Under the pieces are notes generated by a model. It did no database searches, had not been told where the DNA came from, and worked only from the letters and a program-made list of their open reading frames with translations. A DNA stretch of 64,000 nt from Narcine bancroftii. Taxonomy: Eukaryota. The stretch spans positions 298,902,001 through 298,966,000 of the forward strand of contig NC_091471.1 of the NCBI RefSeq assembly GCF_036971445.1, in the 5' to 3' direction. Below are positions 160-36,300 of the stretch, piece after piece. The first letter of the stretch is position 1, and every line of letters begins with the position of its first letter. A program made the translations under genes and the position numbers.

Positions 160-230
160 CATGATATTATTGTATTTCAAAAGCACTCATGGCGTTAAAC
201 TTCTGTAACATGTCCATTTCACACTTCCAG

Positions 231-386
231 AAACAACTGGGACAACAAGTACAGAGGCAACGACTGTGGCCACCACAACATCTACAGAGACCACATCAGC
301 GGCAGGATCGTCAACTTTAGGCAGTTCAAGTGCAATTACAACAGAAATTACATCAGCTTCAACATCGACACCAACTGCAAGTACGG
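231..386 (+). CDS. Representative PTS exon type A (156 nt, phase 1-1): ETTGTTSTEATTVATTTSTETTSAAGSSTLGSSSAITTEITSASTSTPTAST
   Basis: Acceptor CACTTCCAG at 222-230, donor GTAAGT at 387; length is a multiple of 3. Confidence 0.92.
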
Positions 387-3300
387 GTAAGTCTACTAAA
401 GAGGACAGACATAAATTCAGGTTCAGTTTGTCTGATAAATGTGAAATAATGTGGATGTTATCATCAAACAAGCATTTTCATGATTTTCCAGACAATATCA
501 CAACAGTCTTGAAAAAAGCGTAAAGTAGTGTGTAATATTGTTGATTGCACATGAGCAGAAATGTTAGAGACATCTTATCATGTCAATTTATTTGTGGAAA
601 AGGACTCCCAGTCTTTGAACTTTCTTAAACAATTCACTTTCACATTGACAGAAACATCTGGAACCACATCAAGTACAGAGGAGATGACTGTTGCCCCCTC
701 AACCACTGAAGTGATCTCAGCTATGGCACAAACGTCAACTGCAGGCAGTTCAACTTCATTAACACCTGAAGTTACATCGACAACAACTGCAATCACCGGT
801 TAGTCTTCTTTAAAGAGGAAAAGACATAAATGTAGCGTATATTTCGCCAATATATCTGAAATTATTTGGATATTATCATTAAGGAAGGAATATACTGAAT
901 TTCCAGATAATATCGCACAGGAATTGAAAAGAAAAATAAAGTACCAGGAAATATTGGTCATTCTTCAAACTCTGAAGATTACAAAATGTATAAAAATGAT
1001 ATTATCGTATGTCAAAAAGCACTCATGACTTTAAACTTCTGTAACATGTCCCTTTCACACTTCCAGAAACAACTGGGACAACAAGTACAGAGGCAACAAC
1101 TGTGGCCACCACAACATCTACAGAGACCACATCAGCGGCAGGATCGTCAACTTTAGGCAGTTCAAGTGCAATAACAACAGAAATTACATCAGCTTCAACA
1201 TCGACACCAACTGCAAGTACGGGTAAGTCTACTAAAGAGGACAGACATAAATTCAGGTTCTGTTTGTCTGATAAATGTGAAATAATGTGAATGTTATCAT
1301 CAATCAAGCATTTTATTATTTTCCAGACAATATCACAACAGTCTTGAAAAAAGCATAATGTGGCGTGTAATATTGTTGATTGCTCATGCGCAGAAATGTT
1401 CCAAATGTCTTTTCGTGTCAATTTATTTGTGGAAAAGGACTCCCAGTCTTTCAACTTTCTTAAAAAATTTACTTTCACACTTCCAGAAACATCTGGAACC
1501 ACATCAAGTACAGAGGAGATGCCTGTGGCCCCCTCAACAACTGAAGTGATCTCAACTACAGCGCAAACGTCAACTGCAGGCAGTTCAACTTCATTAACAC
1601 CTGAAGTTACATCGACAACAACTGCAATCACCGGTTAGTCTTCTTTTAAGAGGAAACGAGATAAATGTAGCATATCTTTCGCCAATAAATCTGAAATTAT
1701 TTGGATATTATCATCAAGCAAGGAATATACTGAATTTCCAGATAATATCGCACAGGAAATGAAAAGGAAAATGAAGTACCAGGAAAAATTGGTCATTCTT
1801 GAAACTCAGAAGATTACAAAACGTATAAACATGATATTATTGTATTTCAAAAGCACTCATGGTGTTAAACGTCTGTAACATGTCTCTTTACACTTCCAGA
1901 AACAACTGGGACAACAAGTACAGAGGCAACGACTGTGGCCACCACAACATCTACAGAGACCACATCAGCGGCAGGATCGTCAACTTTAGGCAGTTCAAGT
2001 GCAATAACAACAGAAATTACATCAGCTTCAACATCGACACCAACTGCAAGTACGGGTAAGTCTACTAAAGAGGACAGACATAAATTCAGGTTCAGTTTGT
2101 CTGATAAATGTGAAATAATGTGGATGTTATCATCAAACAAGCAGTTTCATGATTTTCCAGACAATATCACAACAGTCTTGAAAAAAGCGTAAAGTAGTGT
2201 GTAATATTGTTGATTGCTCATGAGCAGAAATGTTAGAGACATCTTATCATGTCAATTTATTTGTGGAAAAGGACTCCCAGTCTTTGAACTTTCTTAAACA
2301 ATTCACTTTCACATTGACAGAAACATCTGGAACCACATCAAGTACAGAGGAGATGACTGTGGCCCCCTCAACCACTGAAGTGATCTCAGCTATGGCACAA
2401 ACGTCAACTGCAGGCAGTTCAACTTCATTGACACCTGAAGTTACATCGACAACAACTGCAAGCACCGGTTAGTCTTCTTTAAAGAGGAAAAGACATAAAT
2501 GTAGCGTATATTTCGCCAATATTTCTGAAATTATTTGGATATTATCATCAAGGAAGGAATTTAATGAATTTCCATATAATAATGCACAGGAATTGAAAAG
2601 AAAAATAAAGTACCACGAAATATTGGTCATTCTTCAAACTCAGAAGATTACAAAATGTATAAAAATGATATTATTGTCTGTCAAAAAGCACTCATGACTT
2701 TAAACTTCTGTAACATGTCCCTTGCAAACCTACAGAAACAACTCGGACAACAAGTACAGAGGCAACGACTGTGGCCACCACAACATCTACAGAGACCACA
2801 TCAGCGGCAGGATCGTCAACTGTAGGCAGTTCAAGTTCAATAACAACAGAAATTACATCAGCTTCAACATCGACACCAACTGCAAGTACGGGTAAGTCTA
2901 CTAAAGAGGAACAGACATAAGTTCAGGTTCTGTTTGTCTGATAAATGTGAAATAATGTGGATGTTATCATCAAACAAGCATTTTCATGATTTTCCAAAAA
3001 ATATCACAACAGCCTTGAAAAAAGCATAAAGTGGCATTTAATATTGTTGATTGCTCATGCGCAGAAATGTTCCAAATGTCTTTTCGTGTCAATTTATTTG
3101 TGGAAAAGGACTCCCAGTCTTTCAACTTTCTTAAAAAATTTACTTTCACACTTCCAGAAACATCTGGAACCACATCAAGTACAGATGAGATGACTGTGGC
3201 CCCCTCAACAACTGAAGTGATCTCAACTACGGCGCAAACGTCAACTGCAGGCAGTTCAACTTCATTGACACCTGAGGTTACATCGACAACAACTGCAATC

Positions 3301-12300: not shown

Positions 12301-15300
12301 ATTCACTTTCACACTGACAGAAACATCTGGAACCACATCAAGTACAGAGGAGATGACTGTGGCCCCCTCAACAACTGAAGTGATCTCAACTACAGCGCAA
12401 ACGTCAACTGCAGGCAGTTCAACTTCATTAACACCTGAAGTTATATCGACAACAACTGTAATCACCGGTTAGTCTTCTTTTAAGAGGAAACGAGATAAAT
12501 GTAGCATATCTTTCGCCAATAAATCTGAAATTAATTGGATATTATCATCAAGCAAGGAATATACTGAATTTCTAGATAATATCGCACAGGAAATGAAAAG
12601 AAAAATGAAATACCAGGAAATATTGGTCATTCTTGAAACTCAGAAGATTACAAAACGTATAAACATGATATTATTGTATTTCAAAAGCACTCATGGTGTT
12701 AAACGTCTGTAACATGTCAATTTACACTTCCAGAAACAACTGGGACAACAAGTACAGAGGCAACGACTGTGGCCACCACAACATCTACAGAGACCACATC
12801 AGCGGCAGGATCGTCAACTTTAGGCAGTTCAAGTGCAATAACAACAGAAATTACATCAGCTTCAACATCGACACCAACTGCAAGTACGGGTAAGTCTACT
12901 AAAGAGGACAGACATAAATTCAGGTTCTGTTTGTCTGATAAATGTGAAATAATGTGGATGTTATCATCAAACAAGCATTTTCATGATTTTCCAGACAATA
13001 TCACAACAGTCTTGAAAAAAGCATAAAGTGGCGTGTAATATTGTTGATTGATCATGCGCAGAAATGTTAGAGACGTCTTATCATGTCAATTTATTTGTGG
13101 AAAAGGACTCCCAGTCTTTCAACTTTCTTAAACAATTCACTTTCACACTGACAGAAACATCTGGAACCACATCAAGTACAGAGGAGATGACTGTGGCCCC
13201 CTCAACAACTGAAGTGATCTCAACTACAGCGCAAACGTCAACTGCAGGCAGTTCAACTTCATTAACACCTGAAGTTATATCGACAACAACTGCAATCACC
13301 GGTTAGTCTTCTTTTAAGAGGAAATGAGATAAATGTAGCATATCTTTCGCCAATAAATCTGAAATTATGTGGATGTTATCATCAAGCAAGGAATTTACTG
13401 AATTTCCAGATAATATCGCACAGGAATTGAAAAGAAAAATAAAGTACCAGGAAATATTGGTCATTCTTCAAACTCTGAAGATTACAAAATGTATAAAAAT
13501 GATATTATCGTATGTCAAAAAGCACTCATGACTTTAAACTTCTGTAACATGTCCCTTTCACACTTCCAGAAACAACTGGGACAACAAGTACAGAGGCAAC
13601 GACTGTGGCCACCACAACATCTACAGAGACCACATCAGCGGCAGGATCGTCAACTTTAGGCAGTTCAAGTGCAATAACAACAGAAATTACATCAGCTTCA
13701 ACATCGACACCAACTGCAAGTACGGGTAAGTCTACTAAAGAGGACAGACATAAATTCAGGTTCTGTTTGTCTGATAAATGTGAAATAATGTGGATGTTAT
13801 CATCAAACAAGCATTTTCATGATTTTCCAGACAATATCACAACAGTCTTGAAAAAAGCATAAAGTGGCGTGTAATATTGTTGATTGATCATGCGCAGAAA
13901 TGTTAGAGACGTCTTATGGTGTCAATTTATTTGTGGAAAAGGACTCCCAGTCTTTCAACTTTCTTAAAAAATTTACTTTCACACTTCCAGAAACATCTGA
14001 AACCACATCAAGTACAGAGGAGATGACTGTGGCCCCCTCAACAACTGAAGTGATCTCAACGACAGCGCAAACATCAACTGCAGGCAGTTCAACTTCATTA
14101 ACACCTGAAGTTACATCGACAACAACTGCAATCACCGGTTAGTCTTCTTTTAAGAGGAAACGAGATAAATGTAGCGTATCTTTCGCCAATAAATCTGAAA
14201 TTATTTGGATATTATCATCAAGCAAGGAATATACTGAATTTCCAGATAATATCGCACAGGAAATGAAAAGAAAAATAAAGTACCACGAAATATTGGTCAT
14301 TCTTCAAACTCAGAAGATTACAAAATGTATAAAAATTATATTATTGTCTGTCAAAAAGCACTCATGACTTTAAACTTCTGTAAATTGTCCCTTGCAAACT
14401 TACAGAAACAACTGGGACAACAAGTACAGAGGCAACGACTGTGGCCACCACAACATCTACAGAGACCACATCAGCGGCAGGATCGTCAACTTTAGGCAGT
14501 TCAAGTGCAATAACAACAGAAATTACATCAGCTTCAACATCGACACCAACTGCAAGTACGGGTACGTCTACTAAAGAGGACAGACATAAATTCAGGTTCA
14601 GTTTGTCTGATAAATGTGAAATAATGTGGATGTTATCATCAAACAAGCATTTTCATGATTTTCCAGACAATATCACAACAGTCTTGAAAAAAGCATAAAG
14701 TGGCGTGTAATATTGTTGATTGATCATGCGCAGAAATGTTCGAGACGTCTTATCATGTCAATTTATTTGTGGAAAAGGACTCCCAGTCTTTCAACTTTCT
14801 TTAACAATTCACTTTCACACTGACAGAAACATCTGGAACCACATCAAGTACAGAGGAGATGACTGTGGCCCCCTCAACAACTGAAGTGATCTCAACTACA
14901 GCGCAAACGTCAACTGCAGGCAGTTCAACTTCATTTACACCTGAAGTTATATCGACAAAAACTGCAATCACCGGTTAGTCTTCTTTTAAGAGGAAACGAG
15001 ATAAATGTAGCATATCTTTCGCCAATAAATCTGAAATTAATTGGATATTATCATCAAGCAAGGAATATACTGAATTTCTAGATAATATCGCACAGGAAAT
15101 GAAAAGAAAAATGAAGTACCAGGAAATATTGGTCATTCTTGAAACTCAGAAGATTACAAAACGTATAAACATGATATTATTGTATTTCAAAAGCACTCAT
15201 GGTGTTAAACGTCTGTAACATGTCTCTTTCACACTTCCAGAAACAACTGGGACAACAAGTACAGAGGCAACGACTGTGGCCACCACAACATCTACAGAGA

Positions 15301-18300
15301 CCACATCAGCGGCAGGATCGTCAACTTTAGGCAGTTCAAGTGCAATAACAACAGAAATTACATCAGCTTCAACATCGACACCAGCTGCAAGTACGGGTAA
15401 GTCTAATAAAGAGGACAGACATAAATTCAGGTTCTGTTTGTCTGATAAATGTGAAATAATGTGGATGTTATCATCAAACAAGCATTTTCATGATTTTCCA
15501 GACAATATCACAACAGTCTTGAAAAAAGCGTAAAGTAGCGTGTAATATTGCTGATTACTCATGCGCAGAAATGTTAGAGACGTCTTATCATGTCAATTTA
15601 TTTGTGGAAAAGGACTCCCAGTCTTTCAACTTTCTTAAACAATTCACTTTCACACTGACAGAAACATCTGGTACCACATCAAGTACAGAGGGGATGACTG
15701 TGGCCCCCTCAACAACTGAAGTGATCTCAACATCGGCACAAACATCAACTGCAGGCAGTTCAAGTTCATTAACAACTGAAGTTACATCGACAACAACAGC
15801 AAGCACTGGTTAGTCTTCTTCAAAGAGGAAAACAGATAGCCTATCTTTCTCAAATAAATCTGAAATTATGTGGATGTTATCATCAAAAAAGGAATTTACT
15901 GTATTTCCAGATAATATAGCACAGGAATTGAAAAGAAAAATAAAGTACCAGGAAATATTGGTCATTCTTCAAACTCTGAAGATTACAAAATGTATAAAAA
16001 TGATATTATCGTATGTCAAAAAGCACTCATGACTTTAAACTTCTGTAACATGTCCCTTTCACACTTCCAGAAACAACTGGGACAACAAGTACAGAGGCAA
16101 CAACTGTGGCCACCACAACATCTACAGAGACCACATCAGCGGCAGGATCGTCAACTTTAGGCAGTTCAAGTGCAATAACAACAGAAATTACATCAGCTTC
16201 AACATCGACACCAACTGCAAGTACGGGTAAGTCTACTAAAGAGGAACAGACATAAATTCAGGTTCTGTTTGTCTGATAAATGTGAAATAATGTGAATGTT
16301 ATCATCAATCAAGCATTTTATTATTTTCCAGACAATATCACAACAGTCTTGAAAAAAGCATAAAGTGGCGTGTAATATTGTTGATTGATCATGCGCAGAA
16401 ATGATAGAGACGTCTTATCATGTCAATTTATTTGTGGAAAAGGACTCCCAGTCTTTCAACTTTCTTAAAAAATTTACTTTCACACTTCCAGAAACATCTG
16501 GAACCACATCAAGTACAGAGGAGATGACTGTGGCCCCCTCAACAACTGAAGTGATCTCAACTACAGCGCAAACGTCAACTGCAGGCAGTTCAACTTCATT
16601 GACACCTGAGGTTACATCGACAACAACTGCAATCACCGGTTAGTCTTCTTTTAAGAGGAAACGAGATAAATGTAGCATATCTTTCGCCAATAAATCTGAA
16701 ATTATTTGGATATTATTATCAAGCAAGGAATATACTGAATTTCCAGATAATATCGCACAGAAATGAAAAGAAAAATGAAGTACAGGGAAAAATTGGTCAT
16801 TCTTCAAACTCAGAAGATTTCAAAAAGTATAAACATGATATTATTGTATTTCAAAAGCACTCATGGTGTTAAACTTCTGTAACATGTCTCTTTCACACTT
16901 CCAGAAACAACTGGGACAACAAGTACAGAGGCAACGACTGTGGCCACCACAACATCTACAGAGACCACATCAGCGGCAGGATCGTCAACTTTAGGCAGTT
17001 CAAGTGCAATAACAACAGAAATTACATCAGCTTCAACATCGACACCAACTGCAAGTACGGGTACGTCTACTAAAGAGGACAGACATAAATTCAGGTTCTG
17101 TTTGTCTGATAAATGTGAAATAATGTGGATGTTATCATCAAACAAGCATTTTCATGATTTTCCAGACAATATCACAACAGTCTTCAAAAAAGCGTAAAGT
17201 AGCGTGAAATATCGTTCATTGCTCATGCGCAGAAATGTTCGAGACGTCTTATCATGTCAATTTATTTGTGGAAAAGGACTCTCAGTCTTTGAACTTTCTT
17301 AAACAATTCACTTTCACACTGACAGAAACATCTGGAACCACATCAAGTACAGAGGAGATGACTGTGGCCCCCTCAACAACTGAAGTGATCTCAACTACAG
17401 CGCAAACGTCAACTGCAGGCAGTTCAACTTCATTAACAACTGAAGTTACATCGACAACAACTGCAAGCACTGGTTAGTCTTCTTCAAAGAGGAAAAGCAT
17501 AAATGTAGCGTATATTTCGCCGATATTTCTGAAATTATTTGGATATTATCATCAAGGAAGGAATTTAATGAATTTCCAGATAATAATGCACAGGAATTGA
17601 AAAGAAAAATAAAGTACCACGAAATATTGGTCATTCTTCAAACTCAGAAGATTACAAAATGTATAAAAATGATATTATTGTCTGTCAAAAAGCACTCATG
17701 ACTTTAAAATTCTGTAACATGTCCCTTGCAAACTTACAGAAACAACTGGGACAACAAGTACAGAGGCAACGACTGTGGCCACCACAACATCTACAGAGAC
17801 CACATCAGCGGCAGGATCATCAACTTTAGGCAGTTCAAGTGCAATAACAACAGAAATTACATCAGCTTCAACATCGACACCAACTGCAAGTACGGGTACG
17901 TCTACTAAAGAGGAACAGACATAAATTCAGGTTCTGTTTGTCTGATAAATGTGAAATAATGTGGATGTTATCATCAAACAAGCATTTTCATGATTTTCCA
18001 GAAAATATCACAACAGTCTTGAAAAAAGCATAAAGTGGCGTGTAATATTGTTGATTGCTCATGCGCAGAAATGTTCCAAATGTCTTTTCGTGTCAATTTA
18101 TTTATGGAAAAGGACTCCCAGTCTTTGAACTTTCTTAAAAAGTTTACTTTCACACTTCCAGAAACATCTGGAACCACATCAAGTACAGAGGAGATGACTG
18201 TGGCCCCCTCAACAACTGAAGTGATCTCAACTACAGCGCAAACGTCAACTGCAGGCAGTTCAACTTCATTAACACCTGAGGTTACATCGACAACATCTGC

Positions 18301-21300
18301 AATCACCGGTTAGTCTTCTTTTAAGAGGAAACGAGATAAATGTAGCATATCTTTCACCAATAAACCTGAAATTATTTGGATATTATCATCAAGCAAGGAA
18401 TATACTGAATTTCCAGATAATATCGCACAGGAAATGAAAAGAAAAATGAAGTACCAGGAAATATTGGTCATTCTTGAAACTCAGAAGATTACAAAACGTA
18501 TAAACATGATATTATTGTATTTCAAAACAGTCATGGCGTTAAACTTCTGTAACATGTCCCTTTCACACTTCCAGAAACAACTGGGACAACAAGTACAGAG
18601 GCAACGACTGTGGCCACCACAACATCTACAGAGACCACATCAGCGGCAGGATCGTCAACTTTAGGCAGTTCAAGTGCAATAACAACAGAAATTACATCAG
18701 CTTCAACATCGACACCAACTGCAAGTACGGGTAAGTCTACTAAAGGGGACAGACATAAATTCAGGTTCTGTTTGTCTGATAAATGTGAAATAATGTGGAT
18801 GTTATCATCAAACAAGCATTTTCATGATTTTCCAGACAATATCACAACAGTCATGAAAAAAGCGTAAAGTAGCGTGAAATATCGTTCATTGCTCATGCGC
18901 AGAAATGTTCCAAATGTCTTTTCGTGTCAATTTATTTGTGGAAAAGGACTCTCAGTCTTTGAACTTTCTTAAACAATTTACTTTCACACTTCCAGAAACA
19001 TCTGGAACCACATCAAGTACAGAGGAGATGACTGTGGCCCCCTCAACAACTGAAGTGATCTCAACAATGGCACAAACGTCAACTGCAGGCAGTTCAAGTT
19101 CATTAACAACTGAAGTTACATCGACAACAACAGCACGCACTGGTTAGTCTTCTTCAAAGAGGAAAACAGATAGCCTATCTTTCTCAAATAAATCTGAAAT
19201 TATGTGGATGTTATCATCAAGCAAGGAATTTACTGAATTTCCAGATAATATCGCACAGGAATTGAAAAGAAAAATAAAGTACCAGGAAATATTGGTCATT
19301 CTTCAAACTCTGAAGATTACAAAATGTATAAAAATGATATTATCGTATGTCAAAAAGCACTCATGACTTTAAACTTCTGTAACATGTCCCTTTCACACTT
19401 CCAGAAACAACTGGGACAACAAGTACAGAGGCAACGACTGTGGCCACCACAACATCTACAGAGACCACATCAGCGGCAGGATCGTCAACTTTAGGCAGTT
19501 CAAGTGCAATAACAACAGAAATTACATCAGCTTCAACATCGACACCAACTGCAAGTACGGGTACGTCTACTAAAGAGGAACAGACATAAATTCAGGTTCT
19601 GTTTGTCTGATAAATGTGAAATAATGTGGATGTTATCATCAAACAAGCATTTTCATGATTTTCCAGAGAATATCACAACAGTCTTGAAAAAAGCGTAAAG
19701 TAGCGTGTAATATTGTTGATTGCTCATGAGCAGAAATGTTAGAGACATCTTATCATGTCAATTTATTTGTGGAAAAGGACTCCCAGTCTTTGAACTTTCT
19801 TAAACAATTCACTTTCACACTGACAGAAACATCTGGAACCACATCAAGTTCAGATGAGATGACTGTGGCCCCCTCAACAACTGAAGTGATCTCAACTACA
19901 GCACAAACGTCAACTGCAGGCAGTTCAACTTCATTAACAACTGAAGTTACATCGACAACAACTGCAAGCACCGGTTAGTCTTCTTTAAAGAGGAAAAGAC
20001 ATAAATGTAGCGTTTATTTCGCCAATATATCTGAAATTATTTGGATATTATCATCAAGGAAGGAATTTAATGAATTTCCAGATAATATCGCACAGGAAAT
20101 GAAAGGAAAAATGAAGTACCAGGAAATATTGTTCATTCTTCAAACTCAGAAGATTACAAAACGTATAAACATGATATTATAGTATTTCAAAAGTACTCAT
20201 GGCGTTAAACTTCTGTAACATGTCCCTTTCACACTTCCAGAAACAACTGGGACAACAAGTACAGAGGCAACGACTGTGGCCACCACAACATCTACAGAGA
20301 CCACATCAGCGGCAGGATCGTCAACTTTAGGCAGTTCAAGTGCAATAACAACAGAAATTACATCAGCTTCAACATCGACACCAACTGCAAGTACGGGTAA
20401 GTCTACTAAAGAGGACAGACATAAATTCAGGTTCTGTTTGTCTGATAAATGTGAAATAATGTGGATGTTATCATCAAACAAGCATTTTCATGATTTTCCA
20501 GACAATATCACAACAGTCTTGAAAAAAGCATAAAGTGGCGTGTAATATTGTTGATTGACCATGCGCAGAAATGTTAGAGACGTCTTATCATGTCAATTTA
20601 TTTGTGGAAAAGGACTCCCAGTCTTTCAACTTTCTTTAACAATTCACTTTCACACTGACAGAAACATCTGGAACCACATCAAGTACAGAGGAGATGACTG
20701 TGGCCCCCTCAACAACTGAAGTGATCTCAACTACAGCGCAAACGTCAACTGCAGGCAGTTCAACTTCATTAACACCTGAAGTTATATCGACAACAACTGC
20801 AATCACCGGTTAGTCTTCTTTTAAGAGGAAACGAGATAAATGTAGCATATCTTTCGCCAATAAATCTGAAATTAATTGGATATTATCATCAAGCAAGGAA
20901 TATACTTAATTTCTAGATAATATCACACAGGAAATGAAAAGAAAAATGAAATACCAGGAAATATTGGTCATTCTTGAAACTCAGAAGATTACAAAACGTA
21001 TAAACATGATATTATTGTATTTCAAAAGCACTCATGGTGTTAAACGTCTGTAACATGTCAATTTACACTTCCAGAAACAACTGGGACAACAAGTACAGAG
21101 GCAACGACTGTGGCCACCACAACATCTACAGAGACCACATCAGCGGCAGGATCGTCAACTTTAGGCAGTTCAAGTGCAATAACAACAGAAATTACATCAG
21201 CTTCAACATCGACACCAACTGCAAGTACGGGTAAGTCTACTAAAGAGGACAGACATCAATTCAGGTTCAGTTTGTCTGATAAATGTGAAATAATGTGGAT

Positions 21301-24300
21301 GTTATCATCAAACATGCATTTTCATGATTTTCCAGACAATATCACAACAGTCTTGAAAAAAGCGTAAAGTAGTGTGTAATATTGTTGATTGCTCATGAGC
21401 AGAAATGTTTGAGACATCTTATCATGTCAATTTATTTGTGGAAAAGGACTCCCAGTCTTTGAACTTTCTTAAACAATTCACTTTCACATTGACAGAAACA
21501 TCTGGAACCACATCAAGTACAGAGGAGATGACTGTGGCCCCCTCAACAACTGAAGTGATCTCAACATCGGCACAAACGTCAACTGCAGGCAGTTCAAGTT
21601 CATTAACAACTGAAGTTACATCGACAACAACAGCAAGCACTGGTTAGTCTTCTTCAAAGAGGAAAACAGATAGCCTATCTTTCTCAAATAAATCTGAAAT
21701 TATGTGGATGTTATCATCAAGCAAGGAATTTACTGAATTTCCAGATAATATCGCACAGGAATTGAAAAGAAAAATAAAGTACCAGGAAATATTGGTCATT
21801 CTTCAAACTCTGAAGATTACAAAATGTATAAAAATGATATTATCGTATGTCAAAAAGCACTCATGACTTTAAACTTCTGTAACATGTCCCTTTCACACTT
21901 CCAGAAACAACTGGGACAACAAGTACAGAGGCAACGACTGTGGCCACCACAACATCTACAGAGACCACATCAGCGGCAGGATCGTCAACTTTAGGCAGTT
22001 CAAGTGCAATAACAACAGAAATTACATCAGCTTCAACATCGACACCAACTGCAAGTACGGGTAAGTCTACTAAAGAGGACAGACATAAATTCAGGTTCTG
22101 TTTGTCTGATAAATGTGAAATAATGTGGATGTTATCATCAAACAAGCATTTTCATGATTTTCCAGACAATATCACAACAGTCTTGAAAAAAGCATAAAGT
22201 GGCGTGTAATATTGTTGATTGATCATGCGCAGAAATGTTAGAGACGTCTTATGGTGTCAATTTATTTGTGGAAAAGGACTCCCAGTCTTTCAACTTTCTT
22301 AAAAAATTTACTTTCACACTTCCAGAAACATCTGAAACCACATCAAGTACAGAGGAGATGACTGTGGCCCCCTCAACAACTGAAGTGATCTCAACGACAG
22401 CGCAAACATCAACTGCAGGCAGTTCAACTTCATTAACACCTGAAGTTACATCGACAACAACTGCAATCACCGGTTAGTCTTCTTTTAAGAGGAAACGAGA
22501 TAAATGTAGCGTATCTTTCGCCAATAAATCTGAAATTATTTGGATATTATCATCAAGCAAGGAATATACTGAATTTCCAGATAATATCGCACAGGAAATG
22601 AAAAGAAAAATAAAGTACCACGAAATATTGGTCATTCTTCAAACTCAGAAGATTACAAAATGTATAAAAATTATATTATTGTCTGTCAAAAAGCACTCAT
22701 GACTTTAAACTTCTGTAAATTGTCCCTTGCAAACTTACAGAAACAACTGGGACAACAAGTACAGAGGCAACGACTGTGGCCACCACAACATCTACAGAGA
22801 CCACATCAGCGGCAGGATCGTCAACTTTAGGCAGTTCAAGTGCAATAACAACAGAAATTACATCAGCTTCAACATCGACACCAACTGCAAGTACGGGTAC
22901 GTCTACTAAAGAGGACAGACATAAATTCAGGTTCAGTTTGTCTGATAAATGTGAAATAATGTGGATGTTATCATCAAACAAGCATTTTCATGATTTTCCA
23001 GACAATATCACAACAGTCTTGAAAAAAGCATAAAGTGGCGTGTAATATTGTTGATTGATCATGCGCAGAAATGTTCGAGACGTCTTATCATGTCAATTTA
23101 TTTGTGGAAAAGGACTCCCAGTCTTTCAACTTTCTTTAACAATTCACTTTCACACTGACAGAAACATCTGGAACCACATCAAGTACAGAGGAGATGACTG
23201 TGGCCCCCTCAACAACTGAAGTGATCTCAACTACAGCGCAAACGTCAACTGCAGGCAGTTCAACTTCATTTACACCTGAAGTTATATCGACAACAACTGC
23301 AATCACCGGTTAGTCTTCTTTTAAGAGGAAACGAGATAAATGTAGCATATCTTTCGCCAATAAATCTGAAATTAATTGGATATTATCATCAAGCAAGGAA
23401 TATACTGAATTTCTAGATAATATCGCACAGGAAATGAAAAGAAAAATGAAGTACCAGGAAATATTGGTCATTCTTGAAACTCAGAAGATTACAAAACGTA
23501 TAAACATGATATTATTGTATTTCAAAAGCACTCATGGTGTTAAACGTCTGTAACATGTCTCTTTCACACTTCCAGAAACAACTGGGACAACAAGTACAGA
23601 GGCAACGACTGTGGCCACCACAACATCTACAGAGACCACATCAGCGGCAGGATCGTCAACTTTAGGCAGTTCAAGTGCAATAACAACAGAAATTACATCA
23701 GCTTCAACATCGACACCAGCTGCAAGTACGGGTAAGTCTAATAAAGAGGACAGACATAAATTCAGGTTCTGTTTGTCTGATAAATGTGAAATAATGTGGA
23801 TGTTATCATCAAACAAGCATTTTCATGATTTTCCAGACAATATCACAACAGTCATGAAAAAAGCGTAAAGTAGCGTGTAATATTGCTGATTACTCATGCG
23901 CAGAAATGTTAGAGACGTCTTATCATGTCAATTTATTTGTGGAAAAGGACTCCCAGTCTTTCAACTTTCTTAAACAATTCACTTTCACACTGACAGAAAC
24001 ATCTGGTACCACATCAAGTACAGAGGGGATGACTGTGGACCCCTCAACAACTGAAGTGATCTCAACATCGGCACAAACATCAAATGCAGGCAGTTCAAGT
24101 TCATTAACAACTGAAGTTACATCGACAACAACAGCAAGCACTGGTTAGTCTTCTTCAAAGAGGAAAACAGATAGCCTATCTTTCTCAAATAAATCTGAAA
24201 TTATGTGGATGTTATCATCAAAAAAGGAATTTACTGTATTTCCAGATAATATAGCACAGGAATTGAAAAGAAAAATAAAGTACCAGGAAATATTGGTCAT

Positions 24301-27300
24301 TCTTCAAACTCTGAAGATTACAAAATGTATAAAAATGATATTATCGTATGTCAAAAAGCACTCATGACTTTAAACTTCTGTAACATGTCCCTTTCACACT
24401 TCCAGAAACAACTGGGACAACAAGTACAGAGGCAACAACTGTGGCCACCACAACATCTACAGAGACCACATCAGCGGCAGGATCGTCAACTTTAGGCAGT
24501 TCAAGTGCAATAACAACAGAAATTACATCAGCTTCAACATCGACACCAACTGCAAGTACGGGTAAGTCTACTAAAGAGGAACAGACATAAATTCAGGTTC
24601 TGTTTGTCTGATAAATGTGAAATAATGTGAATGTTATCATCAATCAAGCATTTTATTATTTTCCAGACAATATCACAACAGTCTTGAAAAAAGCATAAAG
24701 TGGCGTGTAATATTGTTGATTGATCATGCGCAGAAATGATAGAGACGTCTTATCATGTCAATTTATTTGTGGAAAAGGACTCCCAGTCTTTCAACTTTCT
24801 TAAAAAATTTACTTTCACACTTCCAGAAACATCTGGAACCACATCAAGTACAGAGGAGATGACTGTGGCCCCCTCAACAACTGAAGTGATCTCAACTACA
24901 GCGCAAACGTCAACTGCAGGCAGTTCAACTTCATTGACACCTGAGGTTACATCGACAACAACTGCAATCACCGGTTAGTCTTCTTTTAAGAGGAAACGAG
25001 ATAAATGTAGCATATCTTTCGCCAATAAATCTGAAATTATTTGGATATTATTATCAAGCAAGGAATATACTGAATTTCCAGATAATATCGCACAGAAATG
25101 AAAAGAAAAATGAAGTACAGGGAAAAATTGGTCATTCTTCAAACTCAGAAGATTTCAAAAAGTATAAACATGATATTATTGTATTTCAAAAGCACTCATG
25201 GTGTTAAACTTCTGTAACATGTCTCTTTCACACTTCCAGAAACAACTGGGACAACAAGTACAGAGGCAACGACTGTGGCCACCACAACATCTACAGAGAC
25301 CACATCAGCGGCAGGATCGTCAACTTTAGGCAGTTCAAGTGCAATAACAACAGAAATTACATCAGCTTCAACATCGACACCAACTGCAAGTACGGGTACG
25401 TCTACTAAAGAGGACAGACATAAATTCAGGTTCTGTTTGTCTGATAAATGTGAAATAATGTGGATGTTATCATCAAACAAGCATTTTCATGATTTTCCAG
25501 ACAATATCACAACAGTCATGAAAAAAGCGTAAAGTAGCGTGAAATATCGTTCATTGCTCATGCGCAGAAATGTTCGAGACGTCTTATCATGTCAATTTAT
25601 TTGTGGAAAAGGACTCTCAGTCTTTGAACTTTCTTAAACAATTCACTTTCACACTGACAGAAACATCTGGAACCACATCAAGTACAGAGGAGATGACTGT
25701 GGCCCCCTCAACAACTGAAGTGATCTCAACTACAGCGCAAACGTCAACTGCAGGCAGTTCAACTTCATTAACAACTGAAGTTACATCGACAACAACTGCA
25801 AGCACTGGTTAGTCTTCTTCAAAGAGGAAAAGCATAAATGTAGCGTATATTTCGCCGATATTTCTGAAATTATTTGGATATTATCATCAAGGAAGGAATT
25901 TAATGAATTTCCAGATAATAATGCACAGGAATTGAAAAGAAAAATAAAGTACCACGAAATATTGGTCATTCTTCAAACTCAGAAGATTACAAAATGTATA
26001 AAAATGATATTATTGTCTGTCAAAAAGCACTCATGACTTTAAAATTCTGTAACATGTCCCTTGCAAACTTACAGAAACAACTGGGACAACAAGTACAGAG
26101 GCAACGACTGTGGCCACCACAACATCTACAGAGACCACATCAGCGGCAGGATCATCAACTTTAGGCAGTTCAAGTGCAATAACAACAGAAATTACATCAG
26201 CTTCAACATCGACACCAACTGCAAGTACGGGTACGTCTACTAAAGAGGAACAGACATAAATTCAGGTTCTGTTTGTCTGATAAATGTGAAATAATGTGGA
26301 TGTTATCATCAAACAAGCATTTTCATGATTTTCCAGAAAATATCACAACAGTCTTGAAAAAAGCATAAAGTGGCGTGTAATATTGTTGATTGCTCATGCG
26401 CAGAAATGTTCCAAATGTCTTTTCGTGTCAATTTATTTATGGAAAAGGACTCCCAGTCTTTGAACTTTCTTAAAAAGTTTACTTTCACACTTCCAGAAAC
26501 ATCTGGAACCACATCAAGTACAGAGGAGATGACTGTGGCCCCCTCAACAACTGAAGTGATCTCAACTACAGCGCAAACGTCAACTGCAGGCAGTTCAACT
26601 TCATTAACACCTGAGGTTACATCGACAACATCTGCAATCACCGGTTAGTCTTCTTTTAAGAGGAAACGAGATAAATGTAGCATATCTTTCACCAATAAAC
26701 CTGAAATTATTTGGATATTATCATCAAGCAAGGAATATACTGAATTTCCAGATAATATCGCACAGGAAATGAAAAGAAAAATGAAGTACCAGGAAATATT
26801 GGTCATTCTTGAAACTCAGAAGATTACAAAACGTATAAACATGATATTATTGTATTTCAAAACAGTCATGGCGTTAAACTTCTGTAACATGTCCCTTTCA
26901 CACTTCCAGAAACAACTGGGACAACAAGTACAGAGGCAACGACTGTGGCCACCACAACATCTACAGAGACCACATCAGCGGCAGGATCGTCAACTTTAGG
27001 CAGTTCAAGTGCAATAACAACAGAAATTACATCAGCTTCAACATCGACACCAACTGCAAGTACGGGTAAGTCTACTAAAGGGGACAGACATAAATTCAGG
27101 TTCTGTTTGTCTGATAAATGTGAAATAATGTGGATGTTATCATCAAACAAGCATTTTCATGATTTTCCAGACAATATCACAACAGTCATGAAAAAAGCGT
27201 AAAGTAGCGTGAAATATCGTTCATTGCTCATGCGCAGAAATGTTCCAAATGTCTTTTCGTGTCAATTTATTTGTGGAAAAGGACTCTCAGTCTTTGAACT

Positions 27301-30300
27301 TTCTTAAACAATTTACTTTCACACTTCCAGAAACATCTGGAACCACATCAAGTACAGAGGAGATGACTGTGGCCCCCTCAACAACTGAAGTGATCTCAAC
27401 AATGGCACAAACGTCAACTGCAGGCAGTTCAAGTTCATTAACAACTGAAGTTACATCGACAACAACAGCACGCACTGGTTAGTCTTCTTCAAAGAGGAAA
27501 ACAGATAGCCTATCTTTCTCAAATAAATCTGAAATTATGTGGATGTTATCATCAAGCAAGGAATTTACTGAATTTCCAGATAATATCGCACAGGAATTGA
27601 AAAGAAAAATAAAGTACCAGGAAATATTGGTCATTCTTCAAACTCTGAAGATTACAAAATGTATAAAAATGATATTATCGTATGTCAAAAAGCACTCATG
27701 ACTTTAAACTTCTGTAACATGTCCCTTTCACACTTCCAGAAACAACTGGGACAACAAGTACAGAGGCAACGACTGTGGCCACCACAACATCTACAGAGAC
27801 CACATCAGCGGCAGGATCGTCAACTTTAGGCAGTTCAAGTGCAATAACAACAGAAATTACATCAGCTTCAACATCGACACCAACTGCAAGTACGGGTACG
27901 TCTACTAAAGAGGAACAGACATAAATTCAGGTTCTGTTTGTCTGATAAATGTGAAATAATGTGGATGTTATCATCAAACAAGCATTTTCATGATTTTCCA
28001 GAGAATATCACAACAGTCTTGAAAAAAGCGTAAAGTAGCGTGTAATATTGTTGATTGCTCCTGAGCAGAAATGTTAGAGACATCTTATCATGTCAATTTA
28101 TTTGTGGAAAAGGACTCCCAGTCTTTGAACTTTCTTAAACAATTCACTTTCACACTGACAGAAACATCTGGAACCACATCAAGTTCAGATGAGATGACTG
28201 TGGCCCCCTCAACAACTGAAGTGATCTCAACTACAGCACAAACGTCAACTGCAGGCAGTTCAACTTCATTAACAACTGAAGTTACATCGACAACAACTGC
28301 AAGCACCGGTTAGTCTTCTTTAAAGAGGAAAAGACATAAATGTAGCGTTTTTTTCGCCAATATATCTGAAATTATTTGGATATTATCATCAAGGAAGGAA
28401 TTTAATGAATTTCCAGATAATATCGCACAGGAAATGAAAGGAAAAATGAAGTACCAGGAAATATTGTTCATTCTTCAAACTCAGAAGATTACAAAACGTA
28501 TAAACATGATATTATAGTATTTCAAAAGTACTCATGGCGTTAAACTTCTGTAACATGTCCCTTTCACACTTCCAGAAACAACTGGGACAACAAGTACAGA
28601 GGCAACGACTGTGGCCACCACAACATCTACAGAGACCACATCAGCGGCAGGATCGTCAACTTTAGGCAGTTCAAGTGCAATAACAACAGAAATTACATCA
28701 GCTTCAACATCGACACCAACTGCAAGTACGGGTACGTCTACTAAAGAGGAACAGACATAAATTCAGGTTCAGTTTGTCTGATAAATGTGAAATAATGTGG
28801 ATGTTATCATCAAACAAGCATTTTCATGATTTTCCAGACAATATCACAACAGTCTTGAAAAAAGCGTAAAGTAGCGTGTAATATTGTTGATTACTCATGC
28901 GCAGAAATGTTAGAGACGTCTTATCATGTCAATTTATTTGTGGAAAAGGACTCCCAGTCTTTGAACTTTCTTAAACAATTCACTTTCACACTGACAGAAA
29001 CATCTGGAACCACATCAAGTACAGAGGAGATGACTGTGGCCCCCTCAACAACTGAAGTGATCTCAACTACAGCGCAAACGTCAACTGCAGGCAGTTCAAC
29101 TTCATTAACACCTGAAGATACATCGACAACAACTGCAAGCACTGGTTAGTCTTCTACAAAGAGGAAAAGACATAAATGTAGCATATATTTCGCCTATATA
29201 TCTGAAATTATTTGGATATTATCATCAAGCAAGGAATATACTGAATTTCCAGATAATATCGCACAGGAAATGAAAAGAAAAATGAAGTACCAGGAAAGAT
29301 TGGTCATTCTTCAAACTCTGAAGATTACAAAATGTATAAAAATGATATTATTGTATTTCAAAAGCACTCATGGCGTTAAACTTCTGTAACATGTCCCTTT
29401 CACACTTCCAGAAACAACTGGGACAACAAGTACAGAGGCAACGACTGTGGCCACCACAGCATCTACAGAGACCACATCAGCGGCAGGATCGTCAACTTTA
29501 GGCAGTTCAAGTGCAATAACAACTGAAATTACATCAGCTTCAACATCGACACCAACTGCAAGTACGGGTACGTCTACTAAAGAGGAACAGACATAAATTC
29601 AGGTTCTCTTTGTCTGATAAATGTGAAATAATGTGGATGTTATCATCAAACAAGCATTTTCATGATTTTCCAGACAATATCACAACAGTCATGAAAAAAG
29701 CGTAAAGTAGCGTGAATTATTGTTCATTGCTCATGCGCAGAAATGTTCCAAATGTCTTTTCATGTCTATTTATTTGTGGAAAAGGACTCCCAGTCTTTGA
29801 ACTTTCTTAAATAATTTATTTTCACACTTCCAGAAACATCTGGAACCACATCAAGTGCAGAGGTGATGACTGTTGCCCCCTCAACCACTGAAGTGATCTC
29901 AGCTATGGCACAAACGTCAACTGCAGGCAGTTCAACTTCATTAACACCTGAAGTTACATCGACAACAACTGCAATCACCGGTTAGTCTTCTTCAAAATGG
30001 AAAGGACATAAATGTAGCATATTTTTCGCCAATATATCTGAAATTATTTGGATGTTATCATCAAGTAAGGAATTTACTGAATTTCTAAATAATATCGCAC
30101 AGGAATTGAAAAGAAAAATAAAGTACCAGAAAATATTGGCCATTCTTCAAAGTCAGAAAATTACAAAATGTATAAAAATGATATTATTGTATGTCAAAAA
30201 GCACTCATGACTTTAATCTCCTGTGACATGTCCCTTTCACACTTCCAGAAACAACTGGAACACCAAGTACAGAGGCAACGTTTGTGGCCACCACAACATC

Positions 30301-33300
30301 TACAGAGACCACATCAGCGGCAGGCTCGTCAACTGTAGGCAGTTCAAGTTCAATAACAACAGAAATTACATCAGCTTCAACATCGACACCAATTGCAAGT
30401 ACGGGTAAGTCTACTAAAGAGGAACAGACATAAATTCAGGTTCTGTTTGTCTGATAAATGTGAAATAATGTGAATGATATCATCAAACAAGCATTTTCAT
30501 GATTTTCCAGACAATATCACAACAGTCTTGAAAAAGCGTAAAGTAGCGTGTAATATTGTTGATTGCTCATGAGCAGAAATGTTCGAGACGTCTTATCATG
30601 TCAATGTCATTTGTGCAAAAGGAATCTCAATCATTGAACTTTCTTTTACAATTCACTTTCACACTTCCAGAAACATCTGGAACCACATCAAGTACAGAGG
30701 AGATGACTGTGGCCCCCTCAACAACTGAAGTGATCTCAACATCGGCACAAACGTCAACTGCAGGCAGTTCAAGTTCATTAACAACTGAAGTTACATCGAC
30801 AACAACAGCAAGCACTGGTTAGTCTTCTTCAAAGAGGAAAACAGATAGCCTATCTTTCTCAAATAAATCTGAAATTATGTGGATGTTATCATCAAGCAAG
30901 GAATTTACTGAATTTCCAGATAATATCGCACAGGAATTGAAAAGAAAAATAAAGTACCAGGAAATATTGGCCATTCTTCAAACTCAGAAGATTACAAAAT
31001 GTATAAAAATTATATTATCGTATGTCAAAAAGCACTCATGACTTTAAACTTCTGTAACATGTCCCTTTCACACTTCCAGAAACAACTGGGACAACAAGTA
31101 CAGAGGCAACGACTGTGGCCACCACAACATCTACAGAGACCACATCAGCGGCAGGATCGTCAACTTTAGGCAGTTCAAGTGCAATTACAACAGAAATTAC
31201 ATCAGCTTCAACATCGACACCAACTGCAAGTACGGGTAAGTCTACTAAAGAGGAACAGACATAAATTCAGGTTCTGTTTGTCTGATAAATGTGAAATAAT
31301 GTGGAAGTTATCATCAAACAAGCATTTTCATGATTTTTCAGACAATATCACAACAGTCTTGAAAAAAGCATAAAGTAGCGTGTAATATTGTTGATTACTC
31401 ATGCGCAGAAATGTTAGAGACGTCTTATCATGTCAATTTATTTGTGGAAAAGGACTCCCAGTCTTTGAACTTTCTTAAACAATTCACTTTCACACTGACA
31501 GAAACATCTGGAACCACATCAAGTACAGAGGAGATGACTGTGGCCCCCTCAACAACTGAAGTGATCTCAACTACAGCGCAAACGTCAACTGCAGGCAGTT
31601 CAACTTCATTAACACCTGAAGATACATCGACAACAACTGCAAGCACTGGTTAGTGTTCTACAAAGAGGAAAAGACATAAATGTAGCATATATTTCGCCAA
31701 TATATCTGAAATTATTTGGATATTATCATCAAGCAAGGAATATACTGAATTTCCAGATAATATCGCACAGGAAATGAAAAGAAAAATGAAGTACCAGGAA
31801 AGATTGGTCATTCTTCAAACTCTGAAGATTACAAAATGTATAAAAATGATATTATTGTATTTCAAAAGCACTCATGGCGTTAAACTTCTGTAACATGTCC
31901 CTTTCACACTTCCAGAAACAACTGGGACAACAAGTACAGAGGCAACGACTGTGGCCACCACAGCATCTACAGAGACGACATCAGCGGCAGGATCGTCAAC
32001 TTTAGGCAGTTCAAGTGCAATAACAACTGAAATTACATCAGCTTCAACATCGACACCAACTGCAAGTACGGGTACGTCTACTAAAGAGGAACAGACATAA
32101 ATTCAGGTTCTCTTTGTCTGATAAATGTGAAATAATGTGGATGTTATCATCAAACAAGCATTTTCATGATTTTCCAGACAATATCACAACAGTCATGAAA
32201 AAAGCGTAAAGTAGCGTGAATTATTGTTCATTGCTCATGCGCAGAAATGTTCCAAATGTCTTTTCATGTCTATTTATTTGTGGAAAAGGACTCCCAGTCT
32301 TTGAACTTTCTTAAATAATTTATTTTCACACTTCCAGAAACATCTGGAACCACATCAAGTGCAGAGGTGATGACTGTTGCCCCCTCAACCACTGAAGTGA
32401 TCTCAGCTATGGCACAAACGTCAACTGCAGGCAGTTCAACTTCATTAACACCTGAAGTTACATCGACAACAACTGCAATCACCGGTTAGTCTTCTTCAAA
32501 ATGGAAAGGACATAAATGTAGCATATTTTTCGCCAATATATCTGAAATTATTTGGATGTTATCATCAAGTAAGGAATTTACTGAATTTCTAAATAATATC
32601 GCACAGGAATTGAAAAGAAAAATAAAGTACCAGAAAATATTGGCCATTCTTCAAAGTCAGAAAATTACAAAATGTATAAAAATGATATTATTGTATGTCA
32701 AAAAGCACTCATGACTTTAATCTCCTGTGACATGTCCCTTTCACACTTCCAGAAACAACTGGAACACCAAGTACAGAGGCAACGTTTGTGGCCACCACAA
32801 CATCTACAGAGACCACATCAGCGGCAGGCTCGTCAACTGTAGGCAGTTCAAGTTCAATAACAACAGAAATTACATCAGCTTCAACATCGACACCAATTGC
32901 AAGTACGGGTAAGTCTACTAAAGAGGAACAGACATAAATTCAGGTTCTGTTTGTCTGATAAATGTGAAATAATGTGAATGTTATCATCAAACAAGCATTT
33001 TCATGATTTTCCAGACAATATCACAACAGTCTTGAAAAAGCGTAAAGTAGCGTGTAATATTGTTGATTGCTCATGAGCAGAAATGTTCGAGACGTCTTAT
33101 CATGTCAATGTCATTTGTGCAAAAGGAATCTCAATCATTGAACTTTCTTTTACAATTCACTTTCACACTTCCAGAAACATCTGGAACCACATCAAGTACA
33201 GAGGAGATGACTGTGGCCCCCTCAACAACTGAAGTGATCTCAACATCGGCACAAACGTCAACTGCAGGCAGTTCAAGTTCATTAACAACTGAAGTTACAT

Positions 33301-36300
33301 CGACAACAACAGCAAGCACTGGTTAGTCTTCTTCAAAGAGGAAAACAGATAGCCTATCTTTCTCAAATAAATCTGAAATTATGTGGATGTTATCATCAAG
33401 CAAGGAATTTACTGAATTTCCAGATAATATCGCACAGGAATTGAAAAGAAAAATAAAGTACCAGGAAATATTGGCCATTCTTCAAACTCAGAAGATTACA
33501 AAATGTATAAAAATTATATTATCGTATGTCAAAAAGCACTCATGACTTTAAACTTCTGTAACATGTCCCTTTCACACTTCCAGAAACAACTGGGACAACA
33601 AGTACAGAGGCAACGACTGTGGCCACCACAACATCTACAGAGACCACATCAGCGGCAGGATCGTCAACTTTAGGCAGTTCAAGTGCAATTACAACAGAAA
33701 TTACATCAGCTTCAACATCGACACCAACTGCAAGTACGGGTAAGTCTACTAAAGAGGAACAGACATAAATTCAGGTTCTGTTTGTCTGATAAATGTGAAA
33801 TAATGTGGAAGTTATCATCAAACAAGCATTTTCATGATTTTTCAGACAATATCACAACAGTCTTGAAAAAAGCATAAAGTAGCGTAAAATATTGTTGATT
33901 GCTCATGCGCAGAACAATTATAGATGTATTATCATGTCAATGTCATTTGTGCAAAAGGAATCTCAATCTTTGAACTTTCTTTTACAATTCACTTTCACAC
34001 TTCCAGAAACATCTGGAACCACATCAAGTACAGAGGAGATGACTGTGGCCCCCTCAACAACTGAAGTGATCTCAACGACAGCGCATACGTCAACTGCAGG
34101 CAGTTCAACTTCATTAACACCTGAGGTTACATCGACAACAACTGCAAGCACCGGTTAGTCCAAGAGGAAAAGAGATAAATGTAGCATATCTTTCTCCAAT
34201 AAATCTGAAATTATTTGGATATTATCATCAAGCAAGGAATTTACTGAATTTCGAGATGATATCGCAAAGGAATTGAAAAGAAAAATAAAGTCCCATGAAA
34301 TATTGGTTATTCTTCAAACTAAGAAGATTACAAAACGTATAAACATGATATTATTGTATGTCAAAAAGCACTCATGACTTTAAACTTCTGTAACATGTCC
34401 CTTTCACACTCCCAGAAACAACTGGAACACCAAGTACAGAGGCAACGTTTGTGGCCACCACAACATCTACAGAGACCACATCAGCGGCAGGATCGTCAAC
34501 TTTAGGCAGTTCAAGTGCAATAACAACAGAAATTACATCAGCTTCAACATCGACACCAACTGCAAGTACGGGTAAGTCTACTAAAGAGGAACAGACATAA
34601 ATTCAGGTTCTGTTTGGCTGCATATGGAAAGTCACAAGGCCTCATTTTATTATTCAGCCTTAACACAAATCTCAGGTGATAAACTTCTGTTGCATCTTAA
34701 AAGAGGTTGGAAAATAGACCTGAGTGTGGTTTTTGAGATGGAAAAAACTTGTAAAAATAACAAAGTACTGTCAAGAGACCTGAGAGTGTGTCTAATTCAG
34801 TTTAAGATTTTGCACAATTTTTATTGGACCAGCAAGATTGGGGTTAAAAAAGACCCCTGAATGCTCATGTTGTGAAGCAGATAAAGGGGACTTAGTACAT
34901 GTGCTGAGGGCTTGCCCCAGAATTCAAGTATTTTGGATAATGATACGCAAGTATTTTGGTGAAGTTTCAGATCTTAAAATTCTATTTTGCACACTTGGGT
35001 TATTTGGGGATAAATAATCTCAAAACTGGATTCAGACAAGTATATGGTAGGCAGACAAATCATACTTCGAGGTTGGAAGATTTTTTTGGGGGATCATCAA
35101 TTCAGGAGTGGGCCTCAGAAATGGTCGAAGTGGCAGCGTTTGAACGCACGTCTTTCAAACAGTTTGATGAATTGGGCATCTCTATCCAAAGATGGGGCAA
35201 AGATCTAGGTTTCTGGGGGGGGGGTGGGTTCGATGTCAGGGGGACATCTGTGGGAATTGCCCCCAAAGTGAGGTGCTGTGCCACCCCATATGGTCACGTC
35301 TATTGCTCGCCATCAAACCCATCCTCACCCTCTGGCATCACTAGCGAGCACCCTTCCCCCCCAGCTAAGTAAATTTTGAGCTTTGCACTGTGCCCCCCCC
35401 CCAACATGTCACTGCTGGTGGTGGTTGATGTTGTGGTGAAGCATATTAATGAACGGCGGGCTTTTTTCTGTTATTAGAGGGCTAAAGAGAAACATATGGT
35501 TAATATATTGATTTTTTTTGCTGCCATGTTTGTTTCAATTTTATGGATAAGGTTATGTTTTGTTACATGACTATGATTTACATAAACTTTTACACTGACT
35601 CAAGAGTTTGGGGAAATTTTTTAAAGAATAAAATTTAAATCATAAAAAAACTGAAATAATTAAGATGTAATCGCATCACAAGCAATTAAAGTAGCTGATT
35701 TTCCCACCAAAATCACTCCAGATTTTCCCAAAAGAATAATCTTCCAGTAGCCATTGTTCATGAAGTGACACAGCATCGTTCAAAATATATTTTGATGAAC
35801 TAATTGTCTTCCAACATGAGATTGCATTGAAAGATCAATGCCATTGCTGCAAAAACACTCCTATCTTCAACACATTCACAACTGCAGAAACGCCTGAAGC
35901 ATCCACAAGTACAGAGGCAACCCCTGTACTGACCACAAGTGCAGCAGAAATCACAGCTGCAGGCAGTACGAGCGCTTCGACACCTAAAACTGCATCTGCT
36001 CCAACAAGTCAAATCATAATCAATGGTGAGAATTCTTGAAAGAGGAACAAGTTATAAATTCAATTAATTTAATGCACATTAAATCCGAAATAATTAAGAT
36101 GCAATCACCTTCAAAGCAATTAGCTGACTTTCCCACCAAAATGGCAGCAGATTTCACAGAAAGAATAATCTCCAGTGGCCATTGTTCATGAGGCTATACT
36201 GCATTATTCAAAATGCATTTTTATGAAATAATCATCTTCTAACATGTAATTGTACTGATAGATCAATACCATTTCTGAAATAACACTCACAATCTTCATG

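Follow-up and report, generated by a model that had tools for sequence, protein, structure and literature searches.

A tandem array of 135 small exons probably encoding the Thr/Ser-rich stalk of a MUC16-like mucin in the electric ray Narcine bancroftii

How does a gene encode a predicted mucin stalk of 6,807 residues in exons of about 150 nt, and what sets the length of that stalk, the number of exon copies in the genome or the choice of exons during splicing? This question is raised by a 64,000-nt window (contig NC_091471.1, positions 298,902,001 to 298,966,000), which is part of a gene of the electric ray Narcine bancroftii and holds part of an array of two alternating exon types, A and B. 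Coordinates are given on the window axis; negative values and values above 64000 follow the same axis into the neighbouring stretches, and the contig position equals 298902000 plus the coordinate. With moderate confidence, we read the array as the Thr/Ser-rich stalk of a MUC16-like mucin that is spliced mostly in order and whose length is set mainly by genomic copy number, not by regulated skipping.

Exon anatomy and splicing of the array

The array is represented in the window by the following features.

231..34571, plus strand: exon array as far as it lies in the window, 42 A and 41 B exons (sequence; B-A and A-B junctions in contigs)
231..386, plus strand: example A exon, 156 nt or 52 codons (sequence)
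652..798, plus strand: example B exon, 147 nt or 49 codons, 68% identical to A (sequence)

A preliminary description of this DNA had proposed about 83 tandem symmetric exons at 231..34571, a repeat unit that includes the introns, and a stop-free product of about 4,190 aa. The window indeed holds exactly 83 array exons in strict ABAB order, 42 A (41 of 156 nt and one of 141 nt) and 41 B (all 147 nt). Every exon is in phase 1-1, has a length that is a multiple of 3, and is preceded by AG and followed by GT (83/83); joined, they give 12,564 nt, or 4,188 codons, with no stop. The introns (262-268 nt) belong to the repeat unit, with a dimer period of ~834 bp, and retention of any of the 82 in-window introns would bring in an in-frame stop. 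The in-window product contains 37.5% Thr, 22.7% Ser, 11.1% Ala, 8.7% Glu and 2.7% Pro, and no Cys. While the count of 83 holds for the window, position 231 is not the start of the array, as 52 more exons sit upstream, the first at -32341 (contig 298869659). The full array comprises 135 exons (68 A, 67 B) with 20,424 nt and 6,807 aa, free of stops, over 67 kb, of which exons make up only 31%; AG and GT are intact in 135/135. The exons fall into 59 distinct sequences, and 12 consecutive exons (~1.8 kb of cDNA) suffice for unique placement of a read within the array. Of the 4,422 conceivable skips of an even number of exons, 71% would yield a joint that can be told apart. One repeat unit searched genome-wide matched at this locus only, with three of six candidates scored and the result to be read as a lower bound.

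Splicing was assessed in contigs from three runs (X1-X3) of one study, aligned to 33800-46300, a region that holds one B and one A copy. In an X3 contig (record 11), 121 letters of A were followed by 114 letters of B with nothing between them. The B-to-A joint, with 262 nt removed from GT to AG, was present in 3/3 runs, its shorter side being only 26-30 letters. At 4/4 diagnostic sites checked, the contigs carried the internal-majority letter and not the terminal-copy letter, and therefore internal copies were spliced. These results support the splicing of array exons to one another at the predicted GT..AG sites in probable RNA contigs. The preliminary description had named spliced A/B junctions as the check on its exon model, and both the A-B and the B-A junction are thus in hand. 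The contig depth of array exons, ~11-14 times that of the single-copy contig of the first SEA repeat (SEA1) in the three runs, as against 68 assembled A copies, was not used, because 3' bias, splitting among variants or a shorter allele would all give it.

The spliced junctions largely refute a view of the array as a non-coding satellite that stays open by chance in an intron upstream of the 1,832-aa gene modelled by NCBI, which we regard as barely credible. Such a satellite would fit the absence of array exons from the NCBI model (P0001, mucin-16-like of Narcine bancroftii, which starts at exon 36329) and a ratio of nonsynonymous to synonymous change (dN/dS) near 1 among the copies. It sits poorly with the splice sites intact throughout the array, with the lack of a signal peptide in P0001, and with the Thr/Ser repeats of 53-57 aa that relatives' models have at the corresponding place. 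Exons are also less variable than introns: 70/303 exon columns vary in the full array, compared to 185/533 intron columns (Fisher p = 0.0004, indicative only, as the copies are non-independent), and the exon-array pattern is therefore not due to chance. Indel events kept the frame in 2/2 cases in exons and in 2/12 in introns (p = 0.066).

Duplication history and the length of the stalk

The mean pairwise difference among copies was 1.6% for A exons and 4.9% for B exons. Between A and B, exons are 68% and introns 65% identical, so the ancestor was likely one exon plus intron unit. We propose that one phase 1-1 exon of ~150 nt may have been duplicated together with its 265-nt intron and diverged into A and B. 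The AB dimer would then have been amplified and homogenised by in-register unequal crossing-over, which, whatever the position of the break, would preserve both frame and ABAB order, and edge copies would escape homogenisation, decay and be spliced out. A predicted signal-peptide exon 18 kb upstream would start a protein of ~8,600 aa, a very long glycocalyx rod.

Two features in the window record this history.

14406..31079, plus strand: higher-order tandem duplication, an 8.3-kb block present twice, 97.9% identical (sequence comparison)
1..140, plus strand: A-rich 3' end of a LINE-1-like insertion (2.4 kb) that interrupts a B-A intron (sequence)

Block duplications of 12.45 kb (99.9% identity), 8.3 kb (97.9%) and 2.5 kb (99.2%) were found in the array. 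A LINE-1-like insertion was found three times at one intron position, in sense orientation in B-A introns (-30733..-24747, -14721..-12292 and -2271..140); the two internally deleted 2.4-kb copies share 99.9% identity with each other and 93.5% with the 6.0-kb copy. All of these insertions fell in introns and left the frame unbroken. Together, the block duplications and the thrice-present insertion speak for unequal crossing-over that kept to the dimer register, and the recent block duplications point to changes in copy number. A fourth LINE-1-like copy lies in a neighbouring stretch (L004:1440-7340) and is followed by a truncated B-exon end.

The likeness of the 12.45-kb block to its neighbour, which includes a 3.9-kb exact match, could also mean that the copy number is partly an assembly artefact, in which a haplotype mis-join repeated a block and the real array is shorter, though still multi-exonic. 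We consider this very unlikely, as 6 bases and 2 gaps separate the block from its neighbour over 8.5 kb, and the other blocks differ by 0.8-2.1%. The diversity of exon sequences and the absence of any N in 554 kb also argue against it, and more than 100 exons would be left even after removal of the block.

The same insertions bear on a further alternative, namely that shorter, secreted stalks are made as well, through messages that end before the SEA and transmembrane exons at A-rich 3' ends of LINE copies or in stop-bearing retained introns. The three sense insertions carry A-rich tails (after exons 4, 28 and 52), all 82 in-window introns hold an in-frame stop, and one intron-containing contig was present in 1/3 runs. 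That contig may be pre-mRNA or DNA, contigs cannot reveal 3' ends, and retained-intron messages are probably degraded by nonsense-mediated decay; we rate secreted stalks as improbable.

Exon copies have decayed at both edges of the array. Five diverged Thr/Ser exon copies follow it (35888-38146).

35888..36025, plus strand: diverged, intact-looking Thr/Ser exon copy, phase 1-1, 138 nt (sequence only)
36329..36475, plus strand: diverged Thr/Ser exon of 147 nt, with a direct splice to 38018 (contigs, sequence)
36760..36919, plus strand: decayed exon copy with acceptor AG and donor GT lost and frame broken, skipped in contigs (sequence, contigs)
37465..37578, plus strand: diverged exon copy whose acceptor is intact and frame open, with weak donors at 37578 or 37590 (sequence, contigs)
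38018..38146, plus strand: last Thr/Ser exon ahead of the SEA region, 129 nt (contigs, sequence)

A 797-nt contig joins 36329-36475, 38018-38146 and the SEA1 exons with 0 differences over 605 aligned bases, and this join leaves out the two copies at 36760-36919 and 37465-37578. No joint from the array to exon 36329 was present among the joints listed (149 further joints were recorded). Exon 35888-36025 was without cover in 3/3 runs; this was not used, as no listed contig joins across it. On the upstream side, decayed Thr/Ser exon copies lie between the candidate signal exon and the array (L003:5329-5390, 6110-6205 and 6497-6630), one of them split by an insertion and one with a stop and without a donor.

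If cells included variable subsets of the 135 exons as cassettes, as in a splicing rheostat, stalk lengths would vary within one animal, perhaps by tissue. The preliminary description had held that any subset of exons can be skipped in frame, and this follows directly from the sequence. Donor strength would also favour variable inclusion: weaker donors were found in 65/67 B exons vs 15/68 A exons, the match to the 9-letter consensus being at 7 positions in 80 array exons and at 8 positions in 55. In the window, the A-exon donors (n = 42) read GTAAGT in 29 and GTACGT in 13, and the B-exon donor GTTAGT in 41/41. The skipping of the flanking open-frame exon is a further point in its favour. On the other side, no A-A or B-B joint was found among the 15 joints and 25 aligned pieces listed (with 149 further joints), and near-identical exons and introns would give exon-specific regulators few handles. 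Moreover, frame symmetry is a precondition of tandem exon duplication, so it is explained by origin alone and is no argument for regulation. We consider variable inclusion possible but doubtful. Its strong form, in which each epithelial cell or tissue would set glycocalyx height by exon number over a range of at most ~6,800 residues, with a sister gene fixed at 3,164, appears unlikely.

Several points weigh against our preferred reading, ordered splicing of a stalk whose length follows copy number. The RNA status of the runs is a tool's guess, and none is recorded as RNA. The contigs show single junctions only and no transcript through many consecutive exons; an A-B junction, moreover, looks identical after skipping of an even number of exons, and the donor strengths (80/135 at 7 of 9 positions) leave room for skipping. 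Exon 37465-37578 was skipped in 3/3 runs and is included in the NCBI model, and the gene may therefore have at least one cassette exon. Among the copies, dN/dS was 0.8-1.0, with no amino-acid-level constraint beyond an open frame without stops; the constraint seen thus concerns the frame and the splice sites, not single residues. Finally, the signal exon was chosen by eye from three scan candidates and is a prediction. Some stochastic in-frame skipping is likely tolerated and need not be regulated.

The MUC16-like gene and its paralog

Downstream of the array, the gene continues with 12 SEA repeats, most of which consist of four exons, and then a transmembrane exon and a tail exon.

38783..42354, plus strand: SEA repeat 1, four exons, 38783-38940, 39028-39095, 40122-40291 and 42322-42354 (contigs, sequence)
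42849..44589, plus strand: SEA repeat 2, four exons, the third matching solved MUC16 SEA domains (contigs, PDB match)
46330..48053, plus strand: SEA repeat 3, four exons (sequence)
49794..52231, plus strand: SEA repeat 4, four exons (sequence)
63385..63690, plus strand: first two exons of SEA repeat 5; repeats 5-12 extend beyond the window (sequence)
101124-101233 (L011:7124-7233), plus strand: transmembrane exon (sequence)
From 103951 (L011:9951), plus strand: tail exon (sequence)

The first 10 SEA repeats joined give 1,371 aa without a stop, and a single transmembrane segment with a short basic, Tyr-containing tail is present; the SEA repeats and the transmembrane exon agree with the earlier identification of the gene as a mucin. 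When a SEA exon, 100% identical to part of P0001, was compared to the PDB, 3/3 matches were Mucin-16 (8GKL and 7SA9 among MUC16 structures; E 2.9e-5 to 0.002). Pfam SEA matches of single exons fell below the curated cut-off, as expected for fragments (4/4 SEA exons tested), and P0001 carries PF01390. Among 42 homologs, from sharks, rays, chimaera, coelacanth, frog and mammals, every specific gene name was mucin-16 or mucin-16-like, the others being unnamed or generic. By its tandem SEA repeats, closest to MUC16, its transmembrane segment and tail and its large predicted Thr/Ser domain, the gene is a ray MUC16-like membrane mucin, and its stalk is probably O-glycosylated. It does not fit the MUC13 pattern of a single SEA domain with EGF modules in a gene next to HEG, having 12 SEA domains, no EGF family among the Pfam matches of P0001, and a MUC16-like paralog as its upstream neighbour.

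The candidate signal-peptide exon (70 nt, phase 1) lies at -50325 to -50256 (L002:9675-9744), and the predicted protein of ~8,600 aa includes it. Another candidate (L030:9005) was discarded because, judged by eye, it sits inside an interspersed repeat. None of the array exons is in P0001, so ~80% of the predicted protein is absent from the public model.

Several observations concern the rest of the gene. In the tail exon (L011:9951 to L012:40), a TGA takes the place of a codon that is sense in relatives, so that the tail looks ~9 codons shorter than theirs; the bases after the TGA still read like the relatives' last residues, and a conserved Tyr motif would be lost. The SEA repeats have been duplicated with their introns too (43450-52900, and from 63385 onward), in units of 3.5-5 kb with exons up to 100% identical; this is the same exon plus intron mode as in the array, with a larger unit. 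An insertion of the long terminal repeat (LTR) type at 53237-62646, in the intron after SEA repeat 4, has an interior that is retrovirus-like by appearance. Its LTR-like copies, at 53238-53800 (plus), 54272-54812 (minus) and 62084-62646 (minus), are 99.8-100% identical over 541-563 nt, and the insertion is probably young. Minisatellites with 41-, 45- and 26-nt units lie inside it (60809-61596).

A second MUC16-like gene lies upstream on the same strand (contig 298673969-298683463 on to ~298791750). It has ~38 SEA repeats (36 plus 2 weaker), 31 of them in a homogeneous 2.2-kb array, and its own transmembrane exon (-112365) and tail. Its predicted stalk, rich in Thr and Pro, is one open exon of 9,495 nt of the Pro/Thr/Ser (PTS) type, coding for 3,164 aa with 48% Thr, 33% Pro and a period of 6-8 aa. 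PTS repeats within one large exon, the variable-number tandem repeat (VNTR) design of MUC1, MUC2, MUC4 and MUC5AC, are thus found in the paralog and not in the array gene. The array gene shows instead the exon-per-repeat design of the chicken Muc13 type, with one near-identical unit per exon and repeat-exon junctions in probable RNA contigs. The two designs are opposite, many small exons (135) in one gene and a single 9.5-kb exon in the other, so at least one rebuilding of the mucin domain took place inside this family.

Relatives were compared as predicted proteins only. A tree of 34 C-terminal segments, midpoint-rooted without an outgroup (11 of 44 proteins, lacking a usable C-terminus, were left out), showed at least two elasmobranch lineages. 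The window's gene groups with 19 other elasmobranch proteins (97/97) and the paralog with skate, sawshark and catshark proteins (100/99). Because the paralogs group separately, the duplication that gave rise to them likely predates the divergence of sharks and rays. In the lineage of the window's gene, shark and skate models have Thr/Ser periods of 53-57 aa, a suggestive hint at kinship with the array unit and no more. In a skate protein (P0047), a 53-aa unit aligns to A without gaps (0/300 shuffles reached the score). Across the shuffling tests of unit homology to A or B, p was at most 0.025 in 2/24 and then in 1/4 (P0047), most being non-significant. Six shark models (P0006, P0007, P0010, P0012, P0013 and P0046) place Thr/Ser blocks not just at the N-terminus but also between SEA domains, unlike the window's gene.

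Known systems and what the array means

Many symmetric exons encoding a low-complexity segment, with its length changed by demonstrated skipping, are known from the titin PEVK cassettes and the Xenopus FIM-B.1 repeats; the titin PEVK exons are diverged and individually regulated. Among mucins, a close counterpart is chicken Muc13, a membrane SEA mucin in which each PTS repeat is one nearly identical exon, supported by expressed sequence tags, and for which length control by splicing was proposed (Lang, Hansson and Samuelsson 2006, PMC1552070). The same paper suggested the one-repeat-per-exon design to be ancestral and mentioned zebrafish Muc13 as similar. Chicken Muc13, a neighbour of HEG, carries a single SEA domain and at least 12 repeats, each of 20 aa, whereas the ray gene belongs to the MUC16 family, carries 12 SEA domains and repeats its A/B dimer through 135 exons of 49-52 codons. 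The novelty implied in the preliminary description was thus overstated, one PTS repeat per exon and the same splicing hypothesis being already in that 2006 paper.

The following comparisons draw on excerpts of the papers cited. Mammalian MUC16/CA125 shares the tandem SEA repeats, the transmembrane segment, the short tail and the large N-terminal Thr/Ser region (PMC10829539, PMC13345508), and human MUC16 transcripts from which entire SEA repeats are missing have been mentioned as possibly arising by splicing (PMC10829539). A human pangenome preprint (2026) describes mucins with one large VNTR exon, and the repeats of MUC16, in a large exon, as degenerate and nearly invariant in length (PMC13345508); in the ray gene, this region consists of exons in a homogenised array. 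Xenopus tropicalis MucXS/Otogl (PMC5789918) and chicken MUC2, with repeat cassettes that extend over exons 32-44 (PMC3549977), likewise have a central mucin domain divided among multiple exons. Both differ in being secreted, gel-forming VWD mucins with Cys-rich interruptions, with 34 PTS repeats in MucXS and 10 cassettes in MUC2. In Schistosoma mansoni SmPoMuc, an exon and its flanking introns are tandemly repeated and homogenised by concerted evolution, as in the ray array, but the exon is 27 nt, the copies number at most ~20 and the genes form a parasite multigene family (PMC2576457).

These systems divide on variable inclusion. SmPoMuc transcripts differ in repeat number, which can exceed the genomic number (PMC2576457), and Xenopus FIM-C.1 was called polymorphic via alternative splicing (PMC7177656). 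Against this, the authors of the chicken MUC2 study found a single PTS splice variant, which was in frame, and no alternative splicing on a massive scale (PMC3549977). Exon-per-repeat mucin domains and the splicing idea are hence already published (chicken Muc13 in 2006; also MucXS and SmPoMuc). No description of the exon structure of an elasmobranch MUC16-like gene was found in the literature searched, which covered few subscription journals and no supplements, and the excerpts of PMC4948705 and PMC10707392 held nothing on exon structure or shark MUC16. What is new here is the scale, the MUC16 family, and the tandem paralog with a single 9.5-kb stalk exon.

The array makes directly testable a question open since 2006, whether splicing varies mucin length within an individual. 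If variable inclusion were true, the literature searched would hold no larger vertebrate example of mucin length set by splicing, and the gene and its paralog would form a natural paired experiment, one giant exon against many small ones.

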